Below are positions 30,604 to 60,926 of a stretch of 64,000 nt of DNA, piece by piece. The number at the start of each line of letters is the position of its first letter. The first letter of the stretch is position 1. The stretch is taken from the NCBI RefSeq assembly GCF_988243305.1, contig NZ_OZ547136.1. One strand, 5' to 3'. The notes under the pieces were generated by a model. The model was not told the DNA's origin. It ran no database searches and saw only the letters and a program-made list of their open reading frames with translations. Made by a program: the position numbers and the translations under genes.

Positions 30604-32406
30604 GTGCGCCGTGACTGGCGCTGTTCTTCAACTGTGGTGGCAGAAGAACGACTAAGAGGTGAAAGTCCTCCACACACCCGGTGAGGGGAAGTGTTAGCGG
30701 AAGGCAAGGGTGTTCATCGCGAGGTGAAATCTGAAGGAAGCTGGATGCAAAATGCTGGCCTGACGAACAGGAAGCGGTTAAGTCGGCGCAGCAGGGTAAG
30801 GTGGCACAAATCACCAAAGCCCGATACTCACACGGAACGCTGTGACGTAAAGCCGACAGGCATAAGCAGGAAAGTCGCGTGAATTACCCCGGGAGATCTG
30901 TCGCCCTGCCAGTGTGCTACCGGCGCCGTGAGGCGCCGGGATGGGGCGGCAGAAGTCAGCCGACGCCGTAGTAGTGCTGCAAAACCGGCAGCATGAAGGG
31001 CCGAACATGATTAACTGTGATTAGGACATCCGAACCCGATGATGATTAATGAAGCACAAGCGCAGGCAACTGCGACCAGCGGCAGAGGAGACGGACAGTA
31101 TCCGTCAGGGCTGCATGATGGCGCTGAAATCAGCACGGCGGCGGGTGGGCAAACGAAAGCGGAAGTGCCGCTGACGATGGAAGCGGTGATAACGAGAGAA
31201 AACCTGATGCTGGCTTATCAGCGCGTGGTGGAAAACAAAGGCACGGCGGGGGTGGATAACCTCAGCGTGGCGGAGTTGAAACCGTGGCTGAAGAAGAACT
31301 GGCGCAGCGTCAGGCAGGCATTGATTGACGGAAACTACCAGCCGCGGGCAATACGCCGGATGGATATCCCGAAGCCGCATGGCGGCGTGAGAACCTCAGG
31401 CATCCCGACGGTGGTGGACAGGCTTATCCAGCAGGCGGTGCAACAGGCACAGCGTTACATACGGGGTGGCAAACGGTGGGTGGTGGATATGGATCTGGAG
31501 AAGTTCTTCGACCGTGTGGATCACAGACTCCTGATGACGCGTCTGGCCAGAACGATAAAGGACAGGCGGGTGCTGTGACTGATACGCCGCTACCTGAAAG
31601 CGGAAATGGTTAAAGACGGGCAAAGGGAGAAACGGCAGGCGGGCATGCTGCAGGGCGGCCCACTGTCGCCGTTACTGTCGAACATCCTGCTGGATGAACT
31701 GGATAAAGAACTGGAGCGTCGTGGACACAGCTTCTGCCGCTACGCAGACGACTGCAACATCTACGTAAGCAGCCGGAAAGCGGGCGACCATCTGCTGAAG
31801 AACATCAGGGCGTTCGTGGAGAACAAACTGAAGGTGAATGAGAAGAAGAGCGCGGTGGCGCGCCCGTGGGATCGGAAGTTCCTCGGGTACAGTGTGACAT
31901 GGCACAAACAGGCGAAGCTGAAGATAGCCCTGACGAGCGTGAACAGGCTGAAGGAGAAAGTCCACAGTCTGACGACGGGAAACCGGAGCAAATCAGTGAA
32001 AGCGACAATCAATGCTCTGACACCAGTGCTGTGTGGATGGATAAGCTACTTCAGGCTGACGGAAGTCAGAGGAGTGCTGGAGGAGCTGGATGGCTGGATC
32101 AAACGGAAACTGCGTTGCTTGTTGTAGCGGCAGTGGAAGAGACCGCTAACCCGGGCAAAGAACCTGCAAAGAGCAGGACTGAGTAAGGACAGGGCAATGA
32201 TCTCTGCGTACAACAACCACGGGCCATGGTGGAACTCAGGGTCAAGCCATATGAATCAGGCGATAAAGAATACATGGTTCAGGAGGCAGGGTCTGATATC
32301 ACTGCTGGAACAGTAGAGGCAGTTCCAGAGTTAACATGAACCGCCGTATGCGGAACCGCACGTACGGTGGTGTGAGAGGACGGCGGGAGTGATCCCGCCT
32401 CCTACT
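30604..32406 (+). mobile_element. Group II intron (bacterial class C-like, inserted just downstream of a terminator hairpin), degenerate
   Basis: 5' end GTGCG at 30604; domain V-like hairpin at ~32341-32372; internal RT/maturase ORF; 3' boundary approximate. Confidence 0.7.
31039..32316 (+). pseudogene. Group II intron reverse transcriptase/maturase with two in-frame stop codons and an internal deletion
   Basis: RT motifs (LEKFFDRVDH, QGGPLSPLLSNILLD, YADD); in-frame TGA at 31576-31578 and TAG at 32125-32127 with homology continuing downstream (GPWWNSGSSHMN); ~30 aa missing after LIQQAV. Confidence 0.75.
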
Positions 32407-32676
32407 CGATCAATTTTAAAACACCTCCTATGTAGGTGGTGATCGTTCATGTGGGGCTTTCTGACAGACTGCCTCGTCATTCCATTCGTATCGCCAGTAA
32501 CTGGCGTTTGTATTGTGGCAGTTCTGGTATACGTTTCCCTGTGTATCTGCACTGGTTCAGCAAGGTTTGAAAAGGAGTATCCCTTGCAAATAACCGAAGC
32601 ATTACTTTCAGAGCCGGAGCTGTTTTTGTTGCTGTGATCCATTTCAATTTTTTCGTGACAAATTATTTATAAATAT

Positions 32677-37582: not shown

Positions 37583-38225
37583 TTTTATCGATGCCTGTGA
37601 AGGTTGATTGGGTCAACTCCAGTACTATGCAACCCTCTCTGAAAAGGGATTTATTATCAGGTTGCAGAATGCAACTTCGCACCACCCCCGTAAACAAAGA
37701 AAAAAGCAGGAACGCCAGAGCCTCACTACGAATTTCCGAACATATTTCTCTATATAACTTACCTTTTTCGAAAATATAACATAGTAATTTCACAAAATTA
37801 TTGACATCCACCATTTTTTGTAAGAAATTTATTCTTATATCATCCGGACATTCTTCACAAAAAAACACAATATAAATTACATTCCGTAAGTGTACATTAT
37901 ATTGTAATTTAATCAGGCTACGTGATAAGCAACGATACATCGCTTTAACCGGTTCAGAAACTCTCCCATTTTTGATGGCTGTAAGCTCATCAAATAATGA
38001 TAGTGGTACCCGCTCGATGACTTGTCGCAGAAGATCTTTTTTTTCGTTGAAATACCAGTATATGGCCCCCCGAGTACAACCTGCGCGCACCGCAATCATC
38101 TCCAGTGTCGTCTTCGAAAAGCCCGTCTCACAAAAGCAGAACTCTGCCGCATCCAGGATTTGTTTGCGGGTTTCTTCCGCTGCAAATTTTGTGTGCCGCA
38201 CCACTGTTGAAATCTCCATTGACAT
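37554..38225 (-). CDS. TetR-family transcriptional regulator (AcrR/EnvR-like)
   Basis: 223-aa ORF with N-terminal TetR HTH (TRKQILDAAEFCFCETGFSKTTLEMIAVRAGCTRGAIYWYF). Confidence 0.8.
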   Translation of the reverse strand: MSMEISTVVRHTKFAAEETRKQILDAAEFCFCETGFSKTTLEMIAVRAGCTRGAIYWYFNEKKDLLRQVIERVPLSLFDELTAIKNGRVSEPVKAMYRCLSRSLIKLQYNVHLRNVIYIVFFCEECPDDIRINFLQKMVDVNNFVKLLCYIFEKGKLYREICSEIRSEALAFLLFSLFTGVVRSCILQPDNKSLFREGCIVLELTQSTFTGIDKNERYYKKQR

Positions 38226-38324
38226 CTTATTTCAGGAAATATCTCTGGGGCATTTAGTACCAACCCAACAGCCATTTACTCAGGCGCAGTATGTTGTTTA
38301 CTGCACCTGAATATTTACTCATGC

Positions 38325-39481
38325 TTATGATTGCTCAGCTTCAGTCTTATCCGATGATTTCTTATTTCTGCGGCTGAAGAACCCGGCAATTAACATATAG
38401 AAGAGAGGAATATAAAAGATTGCCAGTATCGTAGCAGTGATCATCCCTCCAACCACACCAGTACCGATGGCATGTTTACTTCCGGAACTTGCTCCAGTCG
38501 AGACAGCCAGTGGGATAACCCCCATTACAAATGCCAGCGAAGTCATAATTATCGGTCTTAACCTCACTCTCGCCGCTTCAACAGCAGCCTCTTTAATGCT
38601 TAGTCCTTCTTTCTCATGCAATTCACGAGCAAACTCCACGATAAGTATGGCATTTTTCGCAGACAGCCCTATTGTTGTTAATAAACCGACCTGGAAAAAG
38701 ACATCGTTACCAAGGCCGCGCAACAAAGTAGCACAGACAGCCCCCAGGACACCAAGCGGAACAACCAGCATGACCGAGAAAGGAATGCTCCAGCTTTCAT
38801 ACAGTGCAGCCAGACACAGAAAGACGATCAACAGTGAAAGTGCATATAGTGCAGGAGCCTGAGAACCTGAAAGTCGTTCCTCAAAAGACAAACCTGTCCA
38901 GGAAATATGGAAACCTTCGGGAAGTCTTGCCGCAATATCCTCAATTGCTTTCATTGCATCCCCGGAACTGTATCCTGGTGCCGGTTCCCCCAGGATTTCG
39001 ACAGCAGAGATACCATTATATTGCTCCAGTTTTGGTGAGCCATAAATCCATTTGCCTGTTGCAAAAGAGGCAAAGGAAACCATGTCGCCATCACTGTTAC
39101 GGACATACCATTTATCAAAATCCTGCGGTGATATACGTGAGCCGGGTTCGCCCTAAATATAGACTTTTTTCACCCGTCCACGATCGTTAAAATCATTTAC
39201 ATACATCGAACCCCAGGCTGCTGGCATTATGTTGTCGACGTCGCTCATGCTCAGTTTAAGCGCCTGAACTTTCTCGTCATCAATCAGAATCTGGAACTGA
39301 GGCTCATCGTTCATGCCGTTAGGACGAACCATGTTTAACGCTGGACTTTTCGCCGCTTCAGCAAGAAGCTGATTTCGGGCCTGGATCATTTTTTCATGGC
39401 CAGCTCCGCTACGATCCTCGAGGAACAGGTCAAACCCTGTAGCATTCCCCAGTTCTGATACGGCAGGGGGCGTTTTAAAAC
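38325..39481 (-). pseudogene. RND efflux transporter (AcrB/AcrF-like) 3' remnant, frameshifted and truncated by IS2
   Basis: 252-aa ORF matches AcrB C-terminal TM bundle; adjacent 78-aa ORF (39153-39389) matches an internal AcrB segment in another frame; 5' end replaced by IS2 at 39482. Confidence 0.75.
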
Positions 39482-39833
39482 TAGACTAGCCCCCAGAATC
39501 TCCAGACAACCAATATCACTTAAATAAGTGATAGTCTTAATACTAGTTTTTAGACTAGTCATTGGAGAACAGATGATTGATGTCTTAGGACCGGAGAAAC
39601 GCAGACGGCGTACTACACAGGAAAAGATCGCTATTGTTCAGCAGAGCTTTGAGCCGGGAATGACGGTCTCCCTTGTTGCCCGGCAACACGGTGTGGCAGC
39701 CAGCCAGTTATTTCTCTGGCGCAAGCAATACCAGGAGGGAAGTCTTACTGCTGTGGCCGCAGGAGAACAGGTCGTTCCTGCCTCTGAACTTGCTGCTGCC
39801 ATGAAGCAGATTAAAGAACTCCAGCGCCTGCTG
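39482..39833 (+). mobile_element. IS2 left-end fragment with truncated orfA (InsC-like)
   Basis: Terminal sequence TAGACTAGCCCCCAGAATCTCCAGACAACC and InsC N-terminus [26 protein letters not shown]...; homology ends near 39833. Confidence 0.8.
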
Positions 39834-40137
39834 AACAAAACGCCGGATGTCTCCCGGCTCTGAAATTAAGGCTTCGGTTATTTGCACGAAATGTTCCTTT
39901 TCAAACCCTGTTGAATTTTGTTAAGCCGGTGCAGACACACGGAAAACGCACATCAACACCGGACGGTACGATACAAACACCAGTGACTGGCGGGACGAAG
40001 GGAATGACGAATCAGTCAGGAAATGATGACAAACAGTTGGCAGACCAGAGGAGTCAGCAGAAAGATGAGCGGGAGTGTCGCCAGCATCGGGGACAGGGCT
40101 GATTTCCGCAATACCAGCGCCGGCATTGCAACACGTT

Positions 40138-40311
40138 TCATGCTGCTGCTCCTCGTGATTCCTCAATTCGCTGCTGCATCCACTGCTCCACTTCACTTTT
40201 GTACCAGCGGCTGCTGCGCCCCAGTTTGATGGGTTTAGGGAAATGACCTTCACTGATCAGCTTGTAAAACCATTTATCGGTCATACCGGTGAAACTGGTG
40301 ATGTAGTTCAT
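40138..40311 (-). CDS. AlpA-family prophage transcriptional regulator
   Basis: MNYITSFTGMTDKWFYKLISEGHFPKPIKLGRSSRWYKSEVEQW matches AlpA-type HTH pattern. Confidence 0.7.
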   Translation of the reverse strand: MNYITSFTGMTDKWFYKLISEGHFPKPIKLGRSSRWYKSEVEQWMQQRIEESRGAAA

Positions 40312-40439
40312 GTCGATCAGGGGATCGTCGGCACGCAGTAACACGCTGTCGTGGCTTGTTGTGGTCAACATGGTCAGAATGTCCTTTGTGAGATTTATGA
40401 AGTTTGTGCGAATGCAGGGAAAGATGCTGAACCGAGCTT

Positions 40440-41045
40440 TCAGAACGGTCCTGCAGATCCGGGATAGCCGGGATTACCGGCGAGGCAACGGGCTTCCGGA
40501 TCGCACACACCACGACGATCGCGGGCGAAATCACTGAACGCCCATATCAACTCTTTGAGGATGTTTTCACAGTCCGGTGAACGACTGTCCAGCACCACAT
40601 CCCGGGTGATCTGCTTCTGATACTGCTTTGCTTCACCCGGTGACGCGAAGCCCAGTACGTTGCTCCAGGCATCCAGAATCAGCCGGTCCAGTTCAGGGCC
40701 GTCGAAATACTCCTGTCTGACACACAGCACCACGTGGTATTCCGGCTTTTCAGGATGACGGGTCAGGAGCCAGCAGAGATCTCGTCCAGGTGTTGCATTC
40801 ATCAGCGCACTGACGGTTTCGATAAAGTCCATACCGAACCAGATCTTTCTGCTGCTGAAGGTACGGTCATATTCACATGGCAGACGAAGCAGGATCCGTC
40901 GTATCCGGGAGCCGGACTGCTCACGCAGCGCACGCTCAAGGACACCGATGATTTTGTTCTGATAAGACGGCCAGAAGGGTGCCAGGCTATAGTCGAAATA
41001 AGGGATAGCATTCATAAGATATGCTCCGTTATGCGCAGCCCACAA
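40440..41045 (-). CDS. YfjJ/YagK-family (inovirus Gp2-like) prophage protein, paralog 1
   Basis: 201-aa ORF with family motif EYHVVLCV; conserved leader motif upstream. Confidence 0.55.
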   Translation of the reverse strand: MWAAHNGAYLMNAIPYFDYSLAPFWPSYQNKIIGVLERALREQSGSRIRRILLRLPCEYDRTFSSRKIWFGMDFIETVSALMNATPGRDLCWLLTRHPEKPEYHVVLCVRQEYFDGPELDRLILDAWSNVLGFASPGEAKQYQKQITRDVVLDSRSPDCENILKELIWAFSDFARDRRGVCDPEARCLAGNPGYPGSAGPF

Positions 41046-41272
41046 TGCGTCCTGCCCGTGAATGAGCTGACGTGTTATAGCTTGCGGATGGGGTTGATGG
41101 AATAAGTGAAGAACCGAAGCAGAACGGGAAGATCAGGTCACCGACAAGGGACAGAACACCGGATGTGGTTAAGAGTGAATGATCTCCGTTGACTTCAGTT
41201 CACATCATTAAGCAAGGTGGTAAGGTTTTACCGACGGAATGTTTCCAGGACAGGAAGCTCAGGATTTAAGCT

Positions 41273-41839
41273 TCAGAAGTGAGGGTTACGAGGACGCCCT
41301 GCAGCAGGACGTTCAGGAACTTCATTGCAGCCGTAGGCACACAGCCCGTCTTTTTGCTCTTCTTTTGCCAGATAATGCAGGGCACCGCGAATATTATCGA
41401 TGCTTTCAGGATCGTTGTGGCGCACAGGAATGTTGATGTTGTATGTATAATGCGGCTGATATGTACAGCGGTGTGCCGAACCGCTGTTATGTGTAATAGA
41501 CCGCCAGCATTCCGTAATCCGCTCCGCAAAGGGATATATTTTTTTAACCCTCTGACGATCGATCCACAAAACCGCATGCGCATGAAAACCATGATCAGCC
41601 GTCCATTCAATCACCCAGAAGAAACCAACGATATTTTCAAATTGTTCCACCTGCTCCAGCAGCATACGCAACTGCAATTCAAGCCAGCGATGATCAGGTT
41701 GTAAGAAATCGGGCGTATCTTTCCTGTAGAAGAAATCCATCCGTAAGGCCCGCAGGCAGGAATAGCGTGCCATCATTTGATTGATGTGATTGTCAAGTAA
41801 AGCGGTAAAAAACCAGTTTGGTGTGTAAGATTTAGGCAT
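41273..41839 (-). CDS. YfjJ/YagK-family prophage protein, paralog 2
   Basis: 188-aa ORF with HAHAVLWI motif. Confidence 0.55.
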   Translation of the reverse strand: MPKSYTPNWFFTALLDNHINQMMARYSCLRALRMDFFYRKDTPDFLQPDHRWLELQLRMLLEQVEQFENIVGFFWVIEWTADHGFHAHAVLWIDRQRVKKIYPFAERITECWRSITHNSGSAHRCTYQPHYTYNINIPVRHNDPESIDNIRGALHYLAKEEQKDGLCAYGCNEVPERPAAGRPRNPHF

Positions 41840-42670
41840 GTTGATGACTCCTGAAAGTTAATGATGTTTTAAGCTCTGTGAACGAATTAATGCTTTCGCT
41901 CATAACGGTAATAACTTACAGATGGTATTTATCAGGCATGCTGTAGCAGAATGGATACGACGGGTTATTAACGATACGCAGCATTATGCAGAAAGAAATG
42001 GATTATCTGATGGTATTAGCTAAAGAGATGAGATAAACGAGGAGTAAAGAAAATACAGACTCAATAAAACATCACGAAATACTGTAAAATACGAGCTAAA
42101 ACCCCACTACCTGGAGATTAAGAAACATATTGCGACCAATCACATCATAAACTACAAACTTGCTCTCAGTGAGTCTGCAAAAACGTGTACAAGGCCAACA
42201 CATATCTGTAACCTGATAAAATCATACACTCTCATTTAATCTGTTAAAAACAACTCACTTCAAAACATGAGCGTTAACGGGTACACGGTACCAGAATAAA
42301 ATATACCATGGATGGATAATTTTCATTTTGTTTAACATACAAGATAATCAGAAACGAACAAATATAATCAGGAATTCACTCTGTTAATTTCATTGTTTAT
42401 CCTGCGCTGTTAAACATGACGAAATCATGGATACCTTATCAAAGAGTAAACATCCAGTTAATCAGTGATGACAGAAGTATTGATATTTACCAGAATAGTT
42501 AAAACACTTCAGGTCAACAACAATCATCGTTAAGTCAATACAGTTCATTATGGATAATGACTAAAATCAATTGCTGTTTCAGTGAAGACTGATAACAGGT
42601 AGATATTAGCAACAACGTAGTAAAATAACTTATCTGAGTATCGTATGAATTACAGTAGTTATGATTGAAT

Positions 42671-42721
42671 GAAGGAGAAGGTGGAGAAGGTGGAGAAGGT
42701 GGAGAAGGTGGAGAAGGTGGA
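42671..42721. repeat. Short tandem repeat, 9-bp unit GAAGGTGGA x5 plus partial copy
   Basis: Read directly from sequence in AT-rich ORF-free region; explains spurious Pro/Ser-repeat ORF on minus strand. Confidence 0.9.
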
Positions 42722-43157
42722 TACCATGATAATGGTGGCAATGAAGATTAGACAAGGAAGGGAGTAAGTATAATCGGGTGAGGGTCAGAGTAATGGAATG
42801 AGTAAAGATAGAGAGTAAGTAAAAACAGAGTGAATAAAGACAAAGTGAATATAATTATAGTAATAAACCTAAATTAAAAATACTTGCGTATAATGGAAAG
42901 AAATAAGAATTAAGAATAGCGTATGAGTCGTAGTCATGACCTGGCTACAAAAAGTCATTCCATCTGGCTGTCATTCAGACACACTCCCCAAACATTCGAC
43001 TACAAAGTACTAACAGAAAATTAACTGATGTATTATTCTTCTGCCCTGAATGAACATCCGGAAGTATAATCTCCCCTAGCTTCACGTTCACCGGGAAAAA
43101 CGAAGCTATTTACTTTGATGATCGCTGACGAAAAACCGAACAGGCAGTTGCATAATC

Positions 43158-44252
43158 ATGGACAACAGAGAAAAAGAGATACTCAGGATCCTGCGTCACA
43201 ACCCACTGATCCAGCAGAATGAAATTGCTGAGATTTTACAAATCAGTCGGTCGCGTGTTGCTGCACACATTATGGATCTGATGCGCAAAGGTGCGATTAA
43301 AGGGAAAGGCTACATCCTGACAGAACAGGAATACTGTGTTGTTCTTGGGGCGATTAACATGGATATCCGTGGGGTGGCGGATATCCATTATCCACAGAAA
43401 TCCTCCAGTCCGGGCAGTATTTACTGCTCTGCCGGAGGTGTCGGACGCAACATCGCCCATAATCTCGCCCTTCTGGGCCGCAATGTGCATCTGATATCTG
43501 CTGTAGGCAATGATTTTTATGGCGAAACATTACTGGAGCAGACCCGCCTGGCCGGCGTTAATGTCACCAATTGTATTCGACTGAACGGACAAAATACTTC
43601 AACTTATGTCTCCATCGCCGACCTACAGGCAGAAACAGTGATGGCGATTAATGATACCCATATTCTGCAACAACTGACGCCGCAGTTGCTGGACGCCTCA
43701 CGTATGTTAATCCGTCACGCTGGCGTGGTGCTGGCTGACTGTAATCTGACACCTGCCGCCCTTGAATGGATCTTTACGGTCGCTGACGGCATTCCCGTTT
43801 TTATTGATACAGTGTCGAAATTTAAGGCTGTTAATGTAAAAAACTGGCTTCCGCATATCCATACCCTGAAACCCACACAAAAAGAACTGGAGATATTATG
43901 GGGTTCCCCTGTCAACAATGAGACCGATCTACTCACCGCAGTGAACGCACTACATCAGCAGGGTGTGCAACAGATTTTTGTCTGGATGGGAGATGAATCC
44001 GTTTTCTGTAGCCAAAGAGAGGGAGAACAATTTCTGCTCACACCGCCCGTTCATGCCGTTGTGGACAGCTTTGGTGCAGATGATGGCTTTATGGCAGGTC
44101 TGCTTTACAGTTTTCTGGAAGGAAGTAGTTTCCAGGAAAGTGCTCACTTTGCGATGGCATGTGCAGCACTGTCACGTGCCAGCACCAGCATCAATAACCC
44201 AACACTTTCCGTTAATAACGCGCAATATCTGTTAAAAACATCCCGGGGGTAA
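43158..44252 (+). CDS. YeiI-like protein: N-terminal winged-helix HTH fused to PfkB-family sugar/nucleoside kinase
   Basis: 364-aa ORF; HTH (LIQQNEIAEILQISRSRVAAHIMDL) plus PfkB motifs (GGVGRNIAH, DSFGADDGFMAG). Confidence 0.8.
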   Translation: MDNREKEILRILRHNPLIQQNEIAEILQISRSRVAAHIMDLMRKGAIKGKGYILTEQEYCVVLGAINMDIRGVADIHYPQKSSSPGSIYCSAGGVGRNIAHNLALLGRNVHLISAVGNDFYGETLLEQTRLAGVNVTNCIRLNGQNTSTYVSIADLQAETVMAINDTHILQQLTPQLLDASRMLIRHAGVVLADCNLTPAALEWIFTVADGIPVFIDTVSKFKAVNVKNWLPHIHTLKPTQKELEILWGSPVNNETDLLTAVNALHQQGVQQIFVWMGDESVFCSQREGEQFLLTPPVHAVVDSFGADDGFMAGLLYSFLEGSSFQESAHFAMACAALSRASTSINNPTLSVNNAQYLLKTSRG

Positions 44253-44270
44253 CACCCGGGATTGTATTTT

Positions 44271-45521
44271 TTATGCCAGCCCAATGAAAAAACCAGCGAT
44301 AGTCGCACTCATCAGGTTTGACAGGGTGGCCGCCGCCAGTGCACGCATGCCCAGTTGTGCAATTTCAGGTGCACGCTGAGGTGATATGGCTGAAAAGGCA
44401 CCCACCACCACACCAATGGAGCCAAAGTTGGCAAAACCACACAGTGCAAAAGAAATAATTGCGGTGGTTTTCACATCAAGCGTACTGCCTGGCTGTAAAT
44501 AGGGTGAAAGATTGAGATAAGCAACAAATTCGTTAATTGCCAGCTTCTGACCAATCAGACTTCCTGCCAGTGAAGCATCCGCCCAGTCAACGCCCATGAT
44601 CCACGCAAGGGGAGCCAAAATCCAGCCGAAAATGCCCTCAAGGGTAATATTACCATAACCAAACCAGCCTCCGATACCACCGATTATACCGTTAATCAGA
44701 GCAATAATAGCAACAAAGGTCATCACTACCGTTGCAACTCCGACAGCGATTTTCAACCCGGTCATCGCCCCGCTGGCCACTGCTTCAATAACACTTTTGG
44801 GAGGAGTATCAGTGAAAGAAAGATTTTCAAAAGTGACTTTTGATTCTTCTGTGGCCGGACTCAGAATACGGGCAAAAAGGATCCCCCCCGGGATCGCCAT
44901 CAACGACGCCGCCAGCAAATAGTCAATCGGAACCCCCATCCCGGCATAGCCGATCATCATTGAACCGGCAATCGAAGCCATCCCACTGCAGATGACAGTA
45001 AATAATTCATTACGATTCAGACGATTAATAAACGGTTTTACAATTGCCGGGATCTCGTTTTGCCCCAGGAAAATTGTCGTTACTGCCACAAATGACTCAA
45101 CTTTACTTATGTTCAGAGCTTTCTGAAAAATCCCCCCCAGAATACGGATAAGCCCCCCCATCACTCTGATGTAGTACAGCAGACTGATAAGCGCTGTAAC
45201 AAAAATGATGGCAGGAAGTACACGGAAGGCGAAGATAAAACCCGCCCCATCGAACAGTACGTCCATTTTGTCCCCTACCAGAGAGCCAAAAATAAAGGCA
45301 CTGCCCGCATCACTGTAAGACATAATTTTATGTACGCCCAGTGCAGCCTGTTCAACCAGCCATTTCCCCGGGGGGAAATAGAGCATGATCCCACCAATCG
45401 CGATTTGAAGAACCAGTGCAGCTCCTGTGGTACGTAAACTGATACGTTTTTTATTCACTGATAGTAGAAATGCAATTATCAGCAATACTGCCATTCCCAC
45501 TATACTTCTCATGATGTCCAT
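44271..45521 (-). CDS. psuT: NupC-family nucleoside transporter (pseudouridine transporter PsuT-like)
   Basis: 416-aa polytopic membrane ORF of NupC/CNT family; downstream of psuG/psuK on same strand. Confidence 0.75.
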   Translation of the reverse strand: MDIMRSIVGMAVLLIIAFLLSVNKKRISLRTTGAALVLQIAIGGIMLYFPPGKWLVEQAALGVHKIMSYSDAGSAFIFGSLVGDKMDVLFDGAGFIFAFRVLPAIIFVTALISLLYYIRVMGGLIRILGGIFQKALNISKVESFVAVTTIFLGQNEIPAIVKPFINRLNRNELFTVICSGMASIAGSMMIGYAGMGVPIDYLLAASLMAIPGGILFARILSPATEESKVTFENLSFTDTPPKSVIEAVASGAMTGLKIAVGVATVVMTFVAIIALINGIIGGIGGWFGYGNITLEGIFGWILAPLAWIMGVDWADASLAGSLIGQKLAINEFVAYLNLSPYLQPGSTLDVKTTAIISFALCGFANFGSIGVVVGAFSAISPQRAPEIAQLGMRALAAATLSNLMSATIAGFFIGLA

Positions 45522-45604
45522 AATGCTCTCCCCTTATACCTGAACCAGACACGGAATCTGGTTCAGGTAATTTCGGGCGACCTCACACTGCCCGTTCATT
45601 TATA

Positions 45605-46540
45605 TCAGACAATTTGTTGATATTCTTTTGCTATCTCACAGGCCAGAACTGCGTTGTTGAATACCAGCTGAATATTTGATTTCAGACTGTCACCACCGGT
45701 TAATTCTGCCACCCGTGCCAGCAGGAACGGTGTGCTTTCTTTACCGGTAATGCCCTGCACTTCCGCTTCTTTTACGGCCTGGTCAATTGCTGCATTAATT
45801 TTCTCTTCCGCCATGGCGTAAGCTTCCGGAATCGGATTGGCAACAACCAGACCACCGTTCAGGCCGGTTTGCCATTTCACTGCCATCGCGCGGGCAATCT
45901 CTTTTGCACTGTCCAGACGTATACTGACCTCAAACGGACTGGTGCGGCAAAAAAATGCCGGCAATGATCTTGTCTGATAGCCAATTAAAGGTACACCAAA
46001 TGTTTCTAAATATTCCGTGGTTAACCCTAAATCGAGAATGGATTTCGCGCCTGCACAAACCACGGTGACATTAGTATGTGCCAGTTCCTGTAGGTCGGCT
46101 GAAATATCAAAAGTGTGTTCTGCACCGCGATGAACGCCGCCAATTCCTCCTGTGGCAAAAACTTTAATTCCGGCAAGAGCAGCAATAATCATGGTTGAAG
46201 CTACCGTTGTTGCACCATGTTTTCCTTCAGCAATAACGAAAGGTAAATCCCGGCGACTGACTTTGGTAACGTTATGTCCTTCGCGACCCAGTAATTCAAT
46301 CTCATCTTTACTTAACCCGACTTTCATTACACCGCCAATAACGGCAATGGTGGCTGGTACTGCTCCGTGTTTACGTATAGTTTCTTCGACTTCAATAGCC
46401 GTCTGAGCATTCTGAGGAAAAGGCATACCATGTGAGATAATTGTTGACTCGAGAGCAACAACAGGTTTTTTACTGTTAATGGCATCCTGTACTTCCGGTG
46501 AAATTTGCAGTAATTCAGAAGAAATGGTTATTTCAGACAT
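45605..46540 (-). CDS. psuG: Pseudouridine-5'-phosphate glycosidase
   Basis: 311-aa ORF of the PsuG/YeiN family; overlaps psuK stop by 8 nt. Confidence 0.8.
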   Translation of the reverse strand: MSEITISSELLQISPEVQDAINSKKPVVALESTIISHGMPFPQNAQTAIEVEETIRKHGAVPATIAVIGGVMKVGLSKDEIELLGREGHNVTKVSRRDLPFVIAEGKHGATTVASTMIIAALAGIKVFATGGIGGVHRGAEHTFDISADLQELAHTNVTVVCAGAKSILDLGLTTEYLETFGVPLIGYQTRSLPAFFCRTSPFEVSIRLDSAKEIARAMAVKWQTGLNGGLVVANPIPEAYAMAEEKINAAIDQAVKEAEVQGITGKESTPFLLARVAELTGGDSLKSNIQLVFNNAVLACEIAKEYQQIV

Positions 46541-47468
46541 TCTGTTTCTCCACTAAGCTTTTAACGTTAGCAACAGATAATTCAGGATTATTGGTATACT
46601 CACTGGCCAGCGCCATTGATGAACACCCCTGTGCAAATCGAATGGAATCAATAAATGGCATATTATCAACCCAGCAGGAAGCCAGCCCTGCCATCATGGC
46701 ATCCCCTGCCCCCGTAACGTTCACCACCTGTGTTTTTACTGGCGGCGACCAGCCGCTGGCTCCGTACAGTTCGCTGTAATAAACTCCATCCCCCCCCATG
46801 CTGAGCACAAGGCGATTCAGACCATGTGTATGGAACCATACCGCCACTTTTTCAGCATCATTCCGATCTGAAAGCGAAATACCACTGAGTGTTTCTGCTT
46901 CAAGCCGGTTGGGCTTGAGAGTATGAATTTGTGCTAAATGTTCACGAATTTTGACACACTTCCATGCAGATACCGGGTCAACAAATACCGGAACCTTACC
47001 TGCATTATTCAGTAGCCAGACAAGTGTTGACTCACTGATATTACAGTCTGCAACAATAACCTTCGCTCCCTGAATAAAATCAATATGCTGTGATAAAAAC
47101 TCAGCTGAAATATGTTCACTAATCGTCATGTCATTTATTGCCACCAACATTTCACCGGTTTTATCGAGAAGTGATAAATAACTTGAGGTATTTTCTCCAT
47201 TAACAATCAGACATTTATCAACATTAACGCCGGACTGAGTCGTTTGTGCTAATAATGATTGCCCGTAGAAATCATCTCCCACAGCTGACATCAGCCATGA
47301 GTTTTTACCCAGCAGAGCAAGATTATGTGCAATATTACGCCCCACACCTCCGGGCGTGAATTTAATCTTCCCCGGGTTAGAATCAGCATAATTTAAGGAG
47401 GCATACGAATATCCGGCTATATCTATATTGGCAGAGCCAATTGTGATGATGTATTCCTTATCACACAT
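46533..47468 (-). CDS. psuK: Pseudouridine kinase (PfkB family)
   Basis: Start at MCDKEYIITIGSANIDIAGY with RBS CAGGAGA; high similarity to E. coli PsuK as recalled. Confidence 0.8.
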   Translation of the reverse strand: MCDKEYIITIGSANIDIAGYSYASLNYADSNPGKIKFTPGGVGRNIAHNLALLGKNSWLMSAVGDDFYGQSLLAQTTQSGVNVDKCLIVNGENTSSYLSLLDKTGEMLVAINDMTISEHISAEFLSQHIDFIQGAKVIVADCNISESTLVWLLNNAGKVPVFVDPVSAWKCVKIREHLAQIHTLKPNRLEAETLSGISLSDRNDAEKVAVWFHTHGLNRLVLSMGGDGVYYSELYGASGWSPPVKTQVVNVTGAGDAMMAGLASCWVDNMPFIDSIRFAQGCSSMALASEYTNNPELSVANVKSLVEKQNV

Positions 47469-48976: not shown

Positions 48977-49708
48977 TCACCTGCCATCCAGTAGACGCCC
49001 CGGCCCACGACTGCAACCATAATTACGTTGCCCGGAACCGTCATGCTGCTTCGTCTCATATTTCACGAGATAACTGGCTCTGTTCCGGGCTTTCTGCAGC
49101 GCTTCCACATCACCACGCTTGATCCAGAGCACAGCGGCTTCACCTGGCTTTTTGTCTGAAGCCTTCCTGGTATCAGAACATCCACCCGACAAAGGCGTGT
49201 CATCGGAAGAAGGGCGAGCATCAGACGATGTCGGTTTACGGGAAGGCGTCCACCTGGAAAAATGGACCAGGCCATCGCCTTGCCAGGGCTCAAGATGCAG
49301 GGCGCTGCACCATGCCTCCTGGATCATCGTCGCCAGCGAAGACGGTTCGCTGAAATCCCCGAGCGAGCACCAGGTATCTTTGTTGAGCAGTAATATCACG
49401 TGATAATGTTTCCTGCCATACATCTTGCCGAACTCCCGGCACCAGAAATAACGCAGGCTGGTTGCATGCACACGCTGATTGGCCCATCTTTTTTTCCGCT
49501 GGTAAGCCTGAATTTTGGCTTTCAGGGATGCGAAAAAACGGGAAATCACCGCTGAATCCGGATCGGGATCCATGATGGTGACAGGCATATACTCAGGGAA
49601 ACGTAAATCCACCCGGATTAACGAGACGGCACGGTGTTGCACCAGGGCACTGTTGAGAATACTTTCAAAACGGGATAACCAGTAATCATTGTGTATTGGT
49701 TGATTCAT
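48977..49708 (-). CDS. YfjJ/YagK-family prophage protein, paralog 3 (full length)
   Basis: 243-aa ORF with HYHVILLL motif; conserved leader immediately upstream. Confidence 0.6.
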   Translation of the reverse strand: MNQPIHNDYWLSRFESILNSALVQHRAVSLIRVDLRFPEYMPVTIMDPDPDSAVISRFFASLKAKIQAYQRKKRWANQRVHATSLRYFWCREFGKMYGRKHYHVILLLNKDTWCSLGDFSEPSSLATMIQEAWCSALHLEPWQGDGLVHFSRWTPSRKPTSSDARPSSDDTPLSGGCSDTRKASDKKPGEAAVLWIKRGDVEALQKARNRASYLVKYETKQHDGSGQRNYGCSRGPGRLLDGR

Positions 49709-50908: not shown

Positions 50909-52070
50909 TCCTGAAGAAGATGAACAGTTTATACTCTTTAAACTGTTCCCTTAATTTTAGAAAAACAGTTTGTGTAAGTGCATGCTCCAACATTCTGAAG
51001 GCGTTATTTCTTACAATACATCATAATCATTGGCAGATCCTCATCTGAATCAAAACACCACAACCAATCATCACACTTTTTCTGAAAAGAGCCTTATGAT
51101 GAAGATAATCACCTTACGCTGAGAAAAAACACCAGGGCCAGTTAATCACCTTATCAATCTCGCCGTTACAAAATCATCCATAAGCCATTTAACAGTGTTA
51201 TCGCAAACTCACAGTAAATCGCATCAGGTTACCTCAATCGGATTTGAGTTAATTCACTGGGCTTTACGTAAAGATACTTTTCTCAGGTTAACGACTAAAA
51301 CACGAAAACTCAGAAAAGGTTAAACACAGGTTCAGTAAAATCGAATATCATCTTGATTGCTTAAACAGGACAGAGGGTTTTGTAGTGAGGTTAACTGATT
51401 TTAGCGATCGTAAAAAAAGGACTAACAAATTTACTAAACTGGATGTGTTTCAGACAAAGCAATGTGTACAGCAATGCTTAATGAAAATACTTGTATGATT
51501 GTCTATGAAAATGCGTGTATAACACTTAGTGAAGATATGTCTGTATAATACGTATATAGTACCATTCCCGACATTCTCAATATCTTCAGACATCCATGCA
51601 GACTGAGTGTTGATTTCAGTTTTTCACGGCCAGCATGGATCTTTACTGGTCAAAAAACAGACAGGTTTACTCTGGAATTATTTTTTTGATTCCGTCTTCA
51701 GAACAACAAAAACTCGTGATAACTCTACAACAAACTATCGTAATTGGCTTCTGTAACCCCGTCACTTTTCCTAAGAAACGTGCCCCCATATGATGCGGGA
51801 GAGATAAGTCATCGTATACAGGAAACACTGCCAATCATAATATGGCGTCATTCAGTAATTTTTATCCATAATCAGATTAGCATATCATGATTATTGAATA
51901 TTATGATATATAGCTCATATGAATGTGTTATTATCTGTAAGCGTTAAGCATCACATTGCATAACCATACTAAGCTGGCTAATCATCAACATTTTTATATG
52001 TAACTCATTGAAATTAATTATATGTTTTTTGTGAATAATTAATATGTAATGTGAAATTAATATTTTTACA

Positions 52071-59597: not shown

Positions 59598-60926
59598 CTG
59601 ATGAATCCCCTAATGATTTTTATCAAAATCATTAAGTTAAGGTAGATACACATCTTGTCATATGATCAAATGGTTTCGCCAAAAATCAATAATCAGACAA
59701 CAAGATGTGCGAACTCGATATTTTACACGACTCTCTTTACCAATTCTGCCCCGAATTACACTTAAAACGACTCAACAGCTTAACGTTGGCTTGCCACGCA
59801 TTACTTGACTGTAAAACTCTCACTCTTACCGAACTTGGCCGTAACCTGCCAACCAAAGCGAGAACAAAACATAACATCAAACGAATCGACCGATTGTTAG
59901 GTAATCGTCACCTCCACAAAGAGCGACTCGCTGTATACCGTTGGCATGCTAGCTTTATCTGTTCGGGCAATACGATGCCCATTGTACTTGTTGACTGGTC
60001 TGATATTCGTGAGCAAAAACGACTTATGGTATTGCGAGCTTCAGTCGCACTACACGGTCGTTCTGTTACTCTTTATGAGAAAGCGTTCCCGCTTTCAGAG
60101 CAATGTTCAAAGAAAGCTCATGACCAATTTCTAGCCGACCTTGCGAGCATTCTACCGAGTAACACCACACCGCTCATTGTCAGTGATGCTGGCTTTAAAG
60201 TGCCATGGTATAAATCCGTTGAGAAGCTGGGTTGGTACTGGTTAAGTCGAGTAAGAGGAAAAGTACAATATGCAGACCTAGGAGCGGAAAACTGGAAACC
60301 TATCAGCAACTTACATGATATGTCATCTAGTCACTCAAAGACTTTAGGCTATAAGAGGCTGACTAAAAGCAATCCAATCTCATGCCAAATTCTATTGTAT
60401 AAATCTCGCTCTAAAGGCCGAAAAAATCAGCGCTCGACACGGACTCATTGTCACCACCCGTCACCTAAAATCTACTCAGCGTCGGCAAAGGAGCCATGGG
60501 TTCTAGCAACTAACTTACCTGTTGAAATTCGAACACCCAAACAACTTGTTAATATCTATTCGAAGCGAATGCAGATTGAAGAAACCTTCCGAGACTTGAA
60601 AAGTCCTGCCTACGGACTAGGCCTACGCCATAGCCGAACGAGCAGCTCAGAGCGTTTTGATATCATGCTGCTAATCGCCCTGATGCTTCAACTAACATGT
60701 TGGCTTGCGGGCGTTCATGCTCAGAAACAAGGTTGGGACAAGCACTTCCAGGCTAACACAGTCAGAAATCGAAACGTACTCTCAACAGTTCGCTTAGGCA
60801 TGGAAGTTTTGCGGCATTCTGGCTACACAATAACAAGGGAAGACTTACTCGTGGCTGCAACCCTACTAGCTCAAAATTTATTCACACATGGTTACGCTTT
60901 GGGGAAATTATGAGGGGATCTCCTTA
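59598..60926 (+). mobile_element. IS10 (Tn10 flanking copy), outside end at 59598
   Basis: Outside-end sequence CTGATGAATCCCCTAATGATTTTTATCAAAATCATTAAG; 1329-bp span; inner terminus reads GGGGATCTCC rather than the inside end as I recall it. Confidence 0.85.
59705..60913 (+). CDS. IS10 transposase
   Basis: 402-aa ORF matching IS10 transposase (MCELDILHDSLYQFCPELHLKRLNSL...). Confidence 0.9.
   Translation: MCELDILHDSLYQFCPELHLKRLNSLTLACHALLDCKTLTLTELGRNLPTKARTKHNIKRIDRLLGNRHLHKERLAVYRWHASFICSGNTMPIVLVDWSDIREQKRLMVLRASVALHGRSVTLYEKAFPLSEQCSKKAHDQFLADLASILPSNTTPLIVSDAGFKVPWYKSVEKLGWYWLSRVRGKVQYADLGAENWKPISNLHDMSSSHSKTLGYKRLTKSNPISCQILLYKSRSKGRKNQRSTRTHCHHPSPKIYSASAKEPWVLATNLPVEIRTPKQLVNIYSKRMQIEETFRDLKSPAYGLGLRHSRTSSSERFDIMLLIALMLQLTCWLAGVHAQKQGWDKHFQANTVRNRNVLSTVRLGMEVLRHSGYTITREDLLVAATLLAQNLFTHGYALGKL

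Follow-up and report, generated by a model that had tools for sequence, protein, structure and literature searches.

A hypervariable 9-bp tandem repeat in a conserved non-coding region of an Escherichia coli genomic island

Introduction

Does a short perfect tandem repeat in a spacer of a genomic island change its copy number from strain to strain, and does that number act on the genes next to it? The question is raised by an array of 9-bp units in a window of 64,000 nucleotides, the whole stretch of DNA that was analysed here, which is part of an E. coli chromosome. Intergenic VNTR loci, such as the generic CVN set and those of O157, are used for the MLVA typing of E. coli. In the phase-variable contingency loci of Haemophilus, Neisseria and Campylobacter, simple-sequence repeats switch genes by frameshift or by the spacing of promoter elements. 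At the RNA level, Rho binds C-rich, G-poor and unstructured stretches of about 70-80 nt. Rut sites and Rho-dependent attenuators occur in long 5' leaders, and Rho and H-NS silence horizontally acquired DNA in E. coli.

Results

The array was delimited with Tandem Repeats Finder, which reported the positions 42674 to 42721 (no strand assigned) as a repeat of period 9 with 5.3 copies, 100% matches and a score of 96. The repeat unit is GGAGAAGGT, which equals GAAGGTGGA in the register of the original prediction. On the minus strand the unit reads TCCACCTTC, with five C and no G in each copy. A perfect repeat of five units had been claimed, and five perfect GAAGGTGGA units were indeed found at 42677-42721, directly preceded by the imperfect GAAGGA at 42671-42676. 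The span originally given, 42671-42721, is right at its end, but its start is 3-6 bases too generous and takes in the imperfect copy. As in other VNTRs, the copies of one unit are arranged head to tail. The 18-mer GAAGGTGGAGAAGGTGGA, which corresponds to two units, occurs four times in the 64-kb window, each time within the VNTR, compared with 0.08 occurrences expected from dinucleotide-preserving shuffles. Three tandem arrays with a score of at least 50 were found in the 64 kb. The 9-bp array ranked first and was followed by a 15-bp repeat at 42812-42851, which is located 90 bp away in the same spacer.

The spacer extends from 41840 to 43157 and had been described as ORF-free and AT-rich. This description holds, since the GC content is 0.30-0.40 compared with 0.45-0.56 in the flanks and no ORF is longer than 68 amino acid residues. 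The ORF of 68 residues starts with TTG on the minus strand and consists mostly of the repeat, and all others have at most 41 residues. An upstream ORF of 23 residues lies at 41832-41903. In the RefSeq annotation of genomes with an identical spacer, no feature was found inside 41840-43157. The literature was searched for the repeat sequence and no paper containing it was found. The VNTR locus is therefore new to the searchable literature and is, in kind, an ordinary bacterial VNTR.

The copy number was then compared across strains. Full-length matches to a 598-bp query covering the repeat and the cargo-side flank identified about 370 carriers among 5426 complete E. coli genomes (about 7%). Of these roughly 370 carriers, 28 were sampled at even spacing, and their unit counts were read from the match spans, which differed by multiples of 9 only. 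The commonest allele in the sample had three units (17 of 28), four units were present in four genomes and five units in three, and single genomes had two, six, seven and eight units. One locus was fetched for each of seven alleles besides that of the window, and the sequences confirmed 2, 3, 4, 6, 7, 8 and 10 perfect units in addition to the five of the window, with 0-2 SNPs in the flank relative to the window over 2153 bp. An allele of nine units was deduced from a match span of 22036 in a 22-kb comparison. When seven independent metagenome contigs were read with an anchored exact pattern, they contained 3, 3, 3, 6, 6, 6 and 7 units.

The 22-kb comparison was done with 22 kb of the island as query, and 307 genomes contained at least 80% of this query in one place. 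All of the 60 matches listed were at least 99.9% identical to the query. In many genomes, the sole difference from the window over the 22 kb was a gap or an insertion of 9 bp, which gave spans of 21991 or 22009, and the bit-score losses of about 60-65 at these spans were as predicted for a single 9-bp gap. The degenerate 15-bp repeat at 42812-42851 was invariant across the orthologous alleles, which fits a slippage process that requires perfect units. The length of the array thus changes in whole units between conserved flanks, as is characteristic of a VNTR. The suggestion of a VNTR or slipped-strand site was confirmed in the E. coli genomes as well as in the metagenome contigs, where alleles of 2 to 10 units are found between near-identical flanks, and an invariant copy number is refuted. 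From the perfect units and the exact 9-bp steps we infer that slipped-strand mispairing would be the mechanism. Assembly artefacts are an unlikely source of the differences, because the lengths are exact multiples of 9, the units are perfect and about 370 independent assemblies are involved. Over 22 kb of the island, changes in the copy number of the VNTR outpace all point mutations taken together.

The array is located in a CP4-57-type integrative genomic island, and its spacer is 100% identical to that of many complete E. coli chromosomes. One of the identical genomes, NZ_AP022049.1, is annotated with a composite integrative island that contains integrase remnants, defence-like genes, a Grp glycyl-radical propanediol microcompartment cluster, two CP4-type backbone blocks, a pseudouridine-utilisation cluster and a YeeU/CbtA toxin-antitoxin end. 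The original placement of the spacer between prophage genes applies only loosely, as there are no phage structural genes; a YagK/YfjJ-type backbone gene is found on the left and a metabolic cargo gene on the right. In the window the island adjoins cadC, which corresponds to the pheU side, and no tRNA was detected inside the window with ARAGORN. In three carriers with six, four and three units, the island is located beside the glc/gsp genes on the pheV side and not beside cadC, and 257-330 SNPs (about 1%) were counted in 27.4 kb of adjacent chromosome. The island is near-identical and the backbones are diverged, which shows that the island spread recently and that the VNTR diversified afterwards. 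The island has thus recently been exchanged among divergent lineages and also between the two tRNA-Phe sites, and since this spread the VNTR has given rise to at least nine alleles, with almost nothing else altered.

The gene on the left (41273-41839, minus strand) encodes a YagK/YfjJ-type protein of 188 residues (WP_001126810.1, named 'inovirus-type Gp2 protein' in RefSeq). Its Pfam matches to REP_ORF2-G2P (24.8 bits) and YagK_YfjJ_C (22.8 bits) are both below the curated cut-offs. The second gene of this string (40440-41045, minus strand) encodes a hypothetical protein of 201 residues, for which no match was found in Pfam or NCBIfam. The third (40138-40371, minus strand) encodes an AlpA-family helix-turn-helix regulator or excisionase-like protein of 77 residues, which scored 40.8 bits against Pfam Phage_AlpA with a cut-off of 21. 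On the right, the first cargo gene (43158-44252, plus strand) encodes a protein of 364 residues with a helix-turn-helix domain (HTH_24, 40.8 bits) and a PfkB sugar kinase domain (199.9 bits), and is followed by genes for a nucleoside transporter, a pseudouridine glycosidase and a pseudouridine kinase. In the literature on YagK, YfjJ or inovirus Gp2, mentions were confined to island gene inventories.

Alignment matches divided the spacer into two parts. The larger part consists of about 1 kb of conserved non-coding DNA (41840-42882, minus strand) upstream of the yagK/yfjJ-like gene. Over 1000 E. coli genomes contain matches to it with 80-90% identity, at up to five places per genome. Every fetched relative of this region adjoins the same yagK-like gene, and the rest of the gene string is present in the fetched loci unless it is interrupted by an IS element. 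The DNA beyond the region varies among the relatives and includes dsdA, IS elements, an hns-like gene and a co-directional yfjI/DUF3987 gene. The region is a putative leader or regulatory region of the island backbone. In an alignment of the window with 11 paralogous loci, the 230 bp that adjoin the yagK-like gene are almost invariant. The remaining non-coding DNA on the cargo side (42883-43157, plus strand), upstream of the sugar kinase gene, is common only to loci with the same cargo; it was found in L004 and not in the other paralogs.

The VNTR falls in the sole length-variable segment of the conserved region. Composition and alignment place this segment at 42609-42860 (minus strand), where it holds the VNTR together with older degenerate repeats and is purine-rich on the plus strand and C-rich and G-poor on the minus strand. 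The homologue of about 42640-42850 measures 99-219 bp across the 11 paralogs, which differ by indels of degenerate purine-rich units such as GAGTAAAGA, GAGTGAATA and GGAAGTAAATAAC in differing numbers. This range of lengths, generated by indels of related units, points to a long-standing length-tolerant, minisatellite-like region. The 15-bp tandem repeat at 42812-42851 (no strand assigned) has the unit AGAGTGAATAAAAAC in 2.7 copies with 84% matches in Tandem Repeats Finder, and units related to it are present in different numbers in the paralogs. It is an older, decayed repeat of the same segment. The site of the VNTR is single-copy (GGAAGTGGA) in 10 of the 11 paralogs and is deleted in L022. 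L019 and L020 have exactly GGAGAAGGTGGATACC, which is one GAAGGTGGA unit. The VNTR arose through expansion of this single-copy GGAAGTGGA, or GAAGGTGGA in the closest paralogs, and is thus the youngest, still-perfect expansion within an old minisatellite-like and length-tolerant segment.

At the distal end of the conserved region, the alignment revealed the motif TATAATTATAGTAATAAACCTAAATTAAAAATA (42850-42882, no strand assigned). In the form TATAAT(T/A)ATAGTAATAAACCTAAATTAAAA it is nearly invariant in 11 of 11 paralogs, and the cargo differs beyond it. On the gene strand the core of the motif is TTAATTTAGGTTAATTAATATAATTA, which was also found in distant relatives from Enterobacter, Mixta, Citrobacter and Salmonella diarizonae, about 140 bp upstream of yagK-like genes with about 50% identity. 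In three distant homologues TTAATTTAGGTTAATTAATATAATTA is flanked by the inverted-repeat arms GGGAGTG...CACTCCC. The genome-wide search for yagK relatives returned nine loci only, which are too few for a deep comparison. The far-end motif probably serves the yagK-type operon as a regulatory site, and in the E. coli family the leader between the motif and the yagK-like gene is longer by about 900 bp.

The strand asymmetry of the length-variable segment was then analysed. The region 42609-42860 is the most extreme stretch of C over G on either strand of the whole 64 kb. On the minus strand, the sense strand for the yagK string, its C-G difference reaches 39 per 100 nt. Within it, the minus strand of 42640-42789 has 39-41 C compared with 5-6 G per 100 nt. 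In all 11 paralogs the G:C ratio on the plus strand of the variable segment is about 4-8.5:1, despite the turnover of its sequence and length. Folding of the minus-strand RNA (261 nt) left the VNTR fully unpaired and gave a minimum free energy of -11.5 kcal/mol; this weak folding follows from the composition (z = -0.02 compared with shuffles). The minus strand therefore contains what is typical of a rut site, a C-rich and G-poor stretch of at least 70-80 nt with little secondary structure. That the asymmetry is kept in all paralogs may be a sign of RNA-level selection and not a by-product of the amplification of purine-rich units.

A contribution of the region to an sRNA or a promoter had also been proposed. 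A search with Rfam 15 of 38000-47000 at E<=1 gave one match only, to a eukaryotic snoRNA model with 30 bits compared with a gathering threshold of 50, and at gathering thresholds the search of the whole window returned nothing in or near the spacer. Promoter-like sites were fewer than expected by chance (4 compared with 6.2 in shuffles), and one terminator-like site was found compared with 0.9 expected, with none on the plus strand. For the proximal leader at 41840-42240, RNAalifold gave an unfavourable covariation term of +1.5 and compensatory changes in 3 of 113 pairs. With no Rfam family, no excess of promoter-like or terminator-like sites and no covariation in 41840-42240, the proposal was not borne out. 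The promoter-like site nearest to the array is TTGTCT-18-TATCAT at 42726-42755 on the minus strand, which was found by the scan as a consensus match only (9 of 12 positions). It ends 5 bp from the array, and no promoter-like site spans the array. About nine GGA triplets, as would be of interest for a CsrA sponge, are present on the plus strand near the repeat, a count close to that predicted by a hand calculation from the base composition.

Discussion

The array is best explained as a hypervariable 9-bp VNTR that would be generated by slipped-strand mispairing. It occupies the sole length-tolerant, repeat-prone segment of the conserved region of about 1 kb upstream of the string of yagK/yfjJ-like, 201-residue and alpA-like genes. 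With a probability of about 0.65, the copy-number differences are a neutral or nearly neutral slippage polymorphism in this length-tolerant part of the island-backbone leader. We infer the neutrality from the absence of a functional signal, which is an argument from silence. The peak of the allele distribution at three units with a tail to ten could be caused by mutation bias or by selection, either of which would fit.

With contingency loci the array shares a hypermutable tandem repeat whose length is changed reversibly by slippage. The differences are that a 9-bp unit never loses the frame, that the array lies outside a conserved ORF and is not placed between -35 and -10 elements, and that it has no adjoining gene of a typically phase-variable kind, such as a surface or restriction-modification gene. 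Neither of the two features that define such loci, a frame-shifting unit within an ORF or a repeat in a core promoter, was found here. A frameshift switch is ruled out by the 9-bp unit, and the combination of a unit that is a multiple of three, no conserved ORF and no placement between the -35 and -10 elements of a promoter-like site from the scan precludes a classical on/off switch.

A graded effect at the RNA level is a different matter, and we regard it as unlikely but worth setting out. The number of units would then alter Rho termination ahead of the yagK/201-residue/alpA string. The motif at 42850-42882 would mark the start of a minus-strand transcript with a long leader that runs to the yagK-like gene, and the C-rich, unstructured segment just downstream of the motif would be a rut-like site, to which each unit UCCACCUUC adds nine G-free nucleotides, five of them C. 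The extreme C excess and the almost unstructured minus strand of 42609-42860 are consistent with this, as is the persistence of the skew in 11 of 11 paralogs that differ in length and sequence. The distant yagK homologues have a C-rich, G-poor leader of unrelated sequence after the motif, as judged by eye and uncounted, and some E. coli loci have yfjI, the motif, the leader and yagK in one orientation. However, the motif offers a good -10 element (TATAAT or TATTAT) but no recognisable -35 element and is absent from the promoter-like sites of the scan, about 800 bp of ordinary AT-rich leader separate the C-rich segment from the gene, and one copy is enough in the paralogs. A neutral and equally simple explanation of the skew is that purine-rich units were amplified again and again. 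Like known rut leaders, the locus has about 250 nt of G-poor, C-rich and unstructured minus strand upstream of island genes in AT-rich DNA; it differs from them in that the candidate is known from its sequence composition, which alone is not diagnostic. The segment is thus a possible rut-like element in a long leader, with the VNTR as a possible modulator. A further step, which is improbable, is that the VNTR acts as a rheostat that sets how much transcription escapes silencing by Rho, together with H-NS, and reaches the yagK-like, 201-residue and alpA-like genes. In CP4-57-type elements it is AlpA-family proteins that govern integrase expression and excision, and the copy number could then tune the frequency of island excision or transfer.

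Other functions for the array are less probable still. It is distinctly improbable that the array is the spacer or the initially transcribed sequence of a local promoter, or part of an upstream regulatory region of the kinase gene, so that the number of units would determine how far upstream elements are from the site at 42755-42726, or would fix the 5' end of its transcript. The start predicted for the sigma-70-like TTGTCT-18-TATCAT does coincide with the first unit of the array on the minus strand, and in 6 of the 11 paralogs no other part of the variable region is as well conserved as the segment with the hexamers. This segment is deleted in the other 5 of the 11, though, four promoter-like sites are fewer than the 6.2 expected in DNA that is so AT-rich, the array is not between any -35 and -10 element, and its distance of 437 bp from the kinase start is too large for a core promoter. 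A coding function is very improbable. In that case the repeat would encode the (EKV)n part of a length-variable small protein, with 32 residues here and 47 residues with ten units. An ATG-initiated ORF (MKEKVEKVEKVEKVEKVDTMIMVAMKIRQGRE, 42669-42767, plus strand) covers the array, the 9-bp unit preserves its frame, and PGAP has called a hypothetical protein in the alleles of eight and ten units. The C-terminal sequence MIMV(A/T)MKIRQ(G/R)R recurs in the window, L004, L005, L019 and L020. But the ORF is annotated just where the repeat lengthens it enough, its ATG is neither preceded by a Shine-Dalgarno sequence nor conserved, and L003 has a frameshift with an early stop. L017 retains a diverged start alone, with a different and longer C-terminus. 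The products of three alleles were not found among about 15 billion proteins. With neither a Shine-Dalgarno sequence nor a conserved start or frame, and with the segment lost in 5 of 11 paralogs, the ORF was rejected as a gene. Least probable of all is a protein-binding array, with the units as iterons for a Rep-like YagK protein or as operators for an island regulator. The adjoining YagK-like protein weakly resembles the rolling-circle Rep/G2P families, albeit with Pfam matches below threshold, and the region is AT-rich. The oriented hexamer ATGGAT occurs six times on the plus strand compared with 0.46 expected, and the last unit of the VNTR ends in the related GTGGATACC. The ten paralogs that retain the site have one copy beside the same gene, which means that an array is not required, and contiguous 9-bp units do not present a constant helical face. 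DnaA-box-like matches were neither enriched in the window (73 compared with 61 expected) nor clustered locally. The motif at 42850-42882 had seemed similar to what we took to be the gpII nick site of f1/M13, TTTAATAGTGGACTC. When this likeness was tested against the M13 sequence, local alignment scores of 15-22 were obtained compared with a shuffle mean of 19.7 and a maximum of 28. As the paralogs are single-copy, DnaA boxes are not enriched and the likeness to the M13 nick site is no better than in shuffles, iterons and an origin were rejected.

The array resembles the MLVA loci in its short perfect head-to-tail units, its polymorphism among strains, its conserved flanks and the presumed slippage. 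It differs in being located on a mobile island, on the pheU side or the pheV side, and not in the chromosomal core, so that it types the island as much as the strain. The nearest K-12 counterpart of the gene string is alpA-yfjI-yfjJ of CP4-57, with which it shares the AlpA and YagK/YfjJ families and, in some of the paralogous loci, DUF3987/YfjI. The order is different: CP4-57 has alpA, yfjI and yfjJ, whereas here a long leader is followed by the yagK-like gene, the 201-residue ORF and the alpA-like gene. The yfjI-yfjJ spacer of K-12 has 152 bp and contains neither the motif nor the 1-kb region, and K-12 transcriptome data are therefore not transferable.

Control of any gene by the VNTR finds no support in the sequences compared here, and unless the tuning hypothesis holds, the scientific interest of the array would be modest. 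If the copy number did affect the operon that contains alpA, the array would be a rare repeat-based rheostat in E. coli that acts on a mobile element's own regulation. Attention is due to the unannotated backbone region of about 1 kb that precedes yagK/alpA-type genes in over 1000 E. coli genomes. The VNTR is a practical, fast-changing marker. Nine or more alleles occur on the island, 22 kb of which are otherwise invariant, and the VNTR can therefore resolve recent transmission or transfer of the pheU/pheV island where SNPs give no resolution. The island that it marks, with its Grp microcompartment and pseudouridine-utilisation cargo, was found in many clinical E. coli.

Conserved elements upstream of the yagK-like gene

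An upstream ORF of 23 aa (MSESINSFTELKTSLTFRSHQHA) is located on the minus strand at 41832-41903, and its stop codon overlaps the start of the yagK-like gene (ATGCCTAA). The ORF was intact in all 12 loci compared, the window and its 11 paralogous E. coli loci. Six codons varied, three of them by synonymous changes only; one of these also had an F/L exchange, and two others showed the exchanges E/A and H/Y. No obvious Shine-Dalgarno sequence was observed for the ORF. The 23-residue product may be a leader peptide that is translationally coupled to the yagK-like gene. Directly upstream of its ATG, 12 bp (AATCAGATCTAA) are present in each of the 11 paralogous loci and absent from the lineage of the window, where they would lie between 41903 and 41904.

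The conserved non-coding region (41840-42882) is enriched for the hexamer ATGGAT, which occurs at 41951, 41998, 42308, 42312, 42427 and 42550 and each time on the plus strand. These 6 copies compare with 0.46 expected, and none of 300 shuffled sequences reached this number. Most of the copies are kept in the paralogs. A related sequence, GTGGATACC, is found at 42717. The hexamer GAGTAA was likewise enriched, with 6 copies versus 0.57 expected.

The homology of the backbone ends at a motif at 42850-42882 that is conserved across E. coli, Enterobacter, Mixta and Citrobacter. In three distant loci (L010, L013 and L014), it is positioned about 140 bp upstream of the start of the yagK-like gene, and in these relatives it is enclosed by a 7-bp inverted repeat (GGGAGTG...CACTCCC), after which comes a run of T residues. 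The motif is possibly a promoter, an operator, the terminator of the upstream gene or a recombination boundary. It does not recur at the second gene annotated as an inovirus Gp2 family protein.

Composition and placement of the island

This second gene encodes 243 residues on the minus strand (about 48977-49708) and is located about 7 kb to the right, past the pseudouridine cluster. Two CP4-type backbones seem to have been combined in the island. A segment of 22 kb (window positions 32001-54000) was at least 99.9% identical in three further carriers of the 9-bp repeat (L038-L040). In the genome type of the window the segment adjoins cadC on the pheU side, and in other strains it adjoins the glc/gsp genes on the pheV side, where the neighbouring chromosome differs by about 1%. 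Since the same segment is found at both sides next to chromosomes that are about 1% apart, the sequence comparison points to a recent horizontal spread of the island or to a switch of its site. The island segment is also carried, at 99.9-100% identity, by the 64,877-bp record NZ_CP173464.1 of strain 98228, which had been counted among the plasmid matches. This record could be a piece of the chromosome left unplaced, or else the island itself in excised, circular form.

Other elements in the window

Rfam models of group II intron domains matched at 30713-32410 on the plus strand (D1-D4 at 134.7 and 73.8 bits, domain V-VI at 50.4 bits), flanking a protein of 160 residues annotated as reverse transcriptase domain-containing. 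Apparently, a decayed group II intron lies between grpO and grpP of the microcompartment cluster. A full-length match to RNA-OUT, the antisense RNA of IS10, was obtained at 59643-59712 on the minus strand (99.5 bits). It lies close to the island end with the CbtA/YeeU toxin-antitoxin genes, in a place for which the RefSeq annotation gives a truncated DUF5983 gene, and is probably an IS10 remnant. A third tandem array, AT-rich and with 2.5 copies of a 22-bp unit (TGAAATTAATTATATGTAATG) at 68% matches, lies at 52009-52061.
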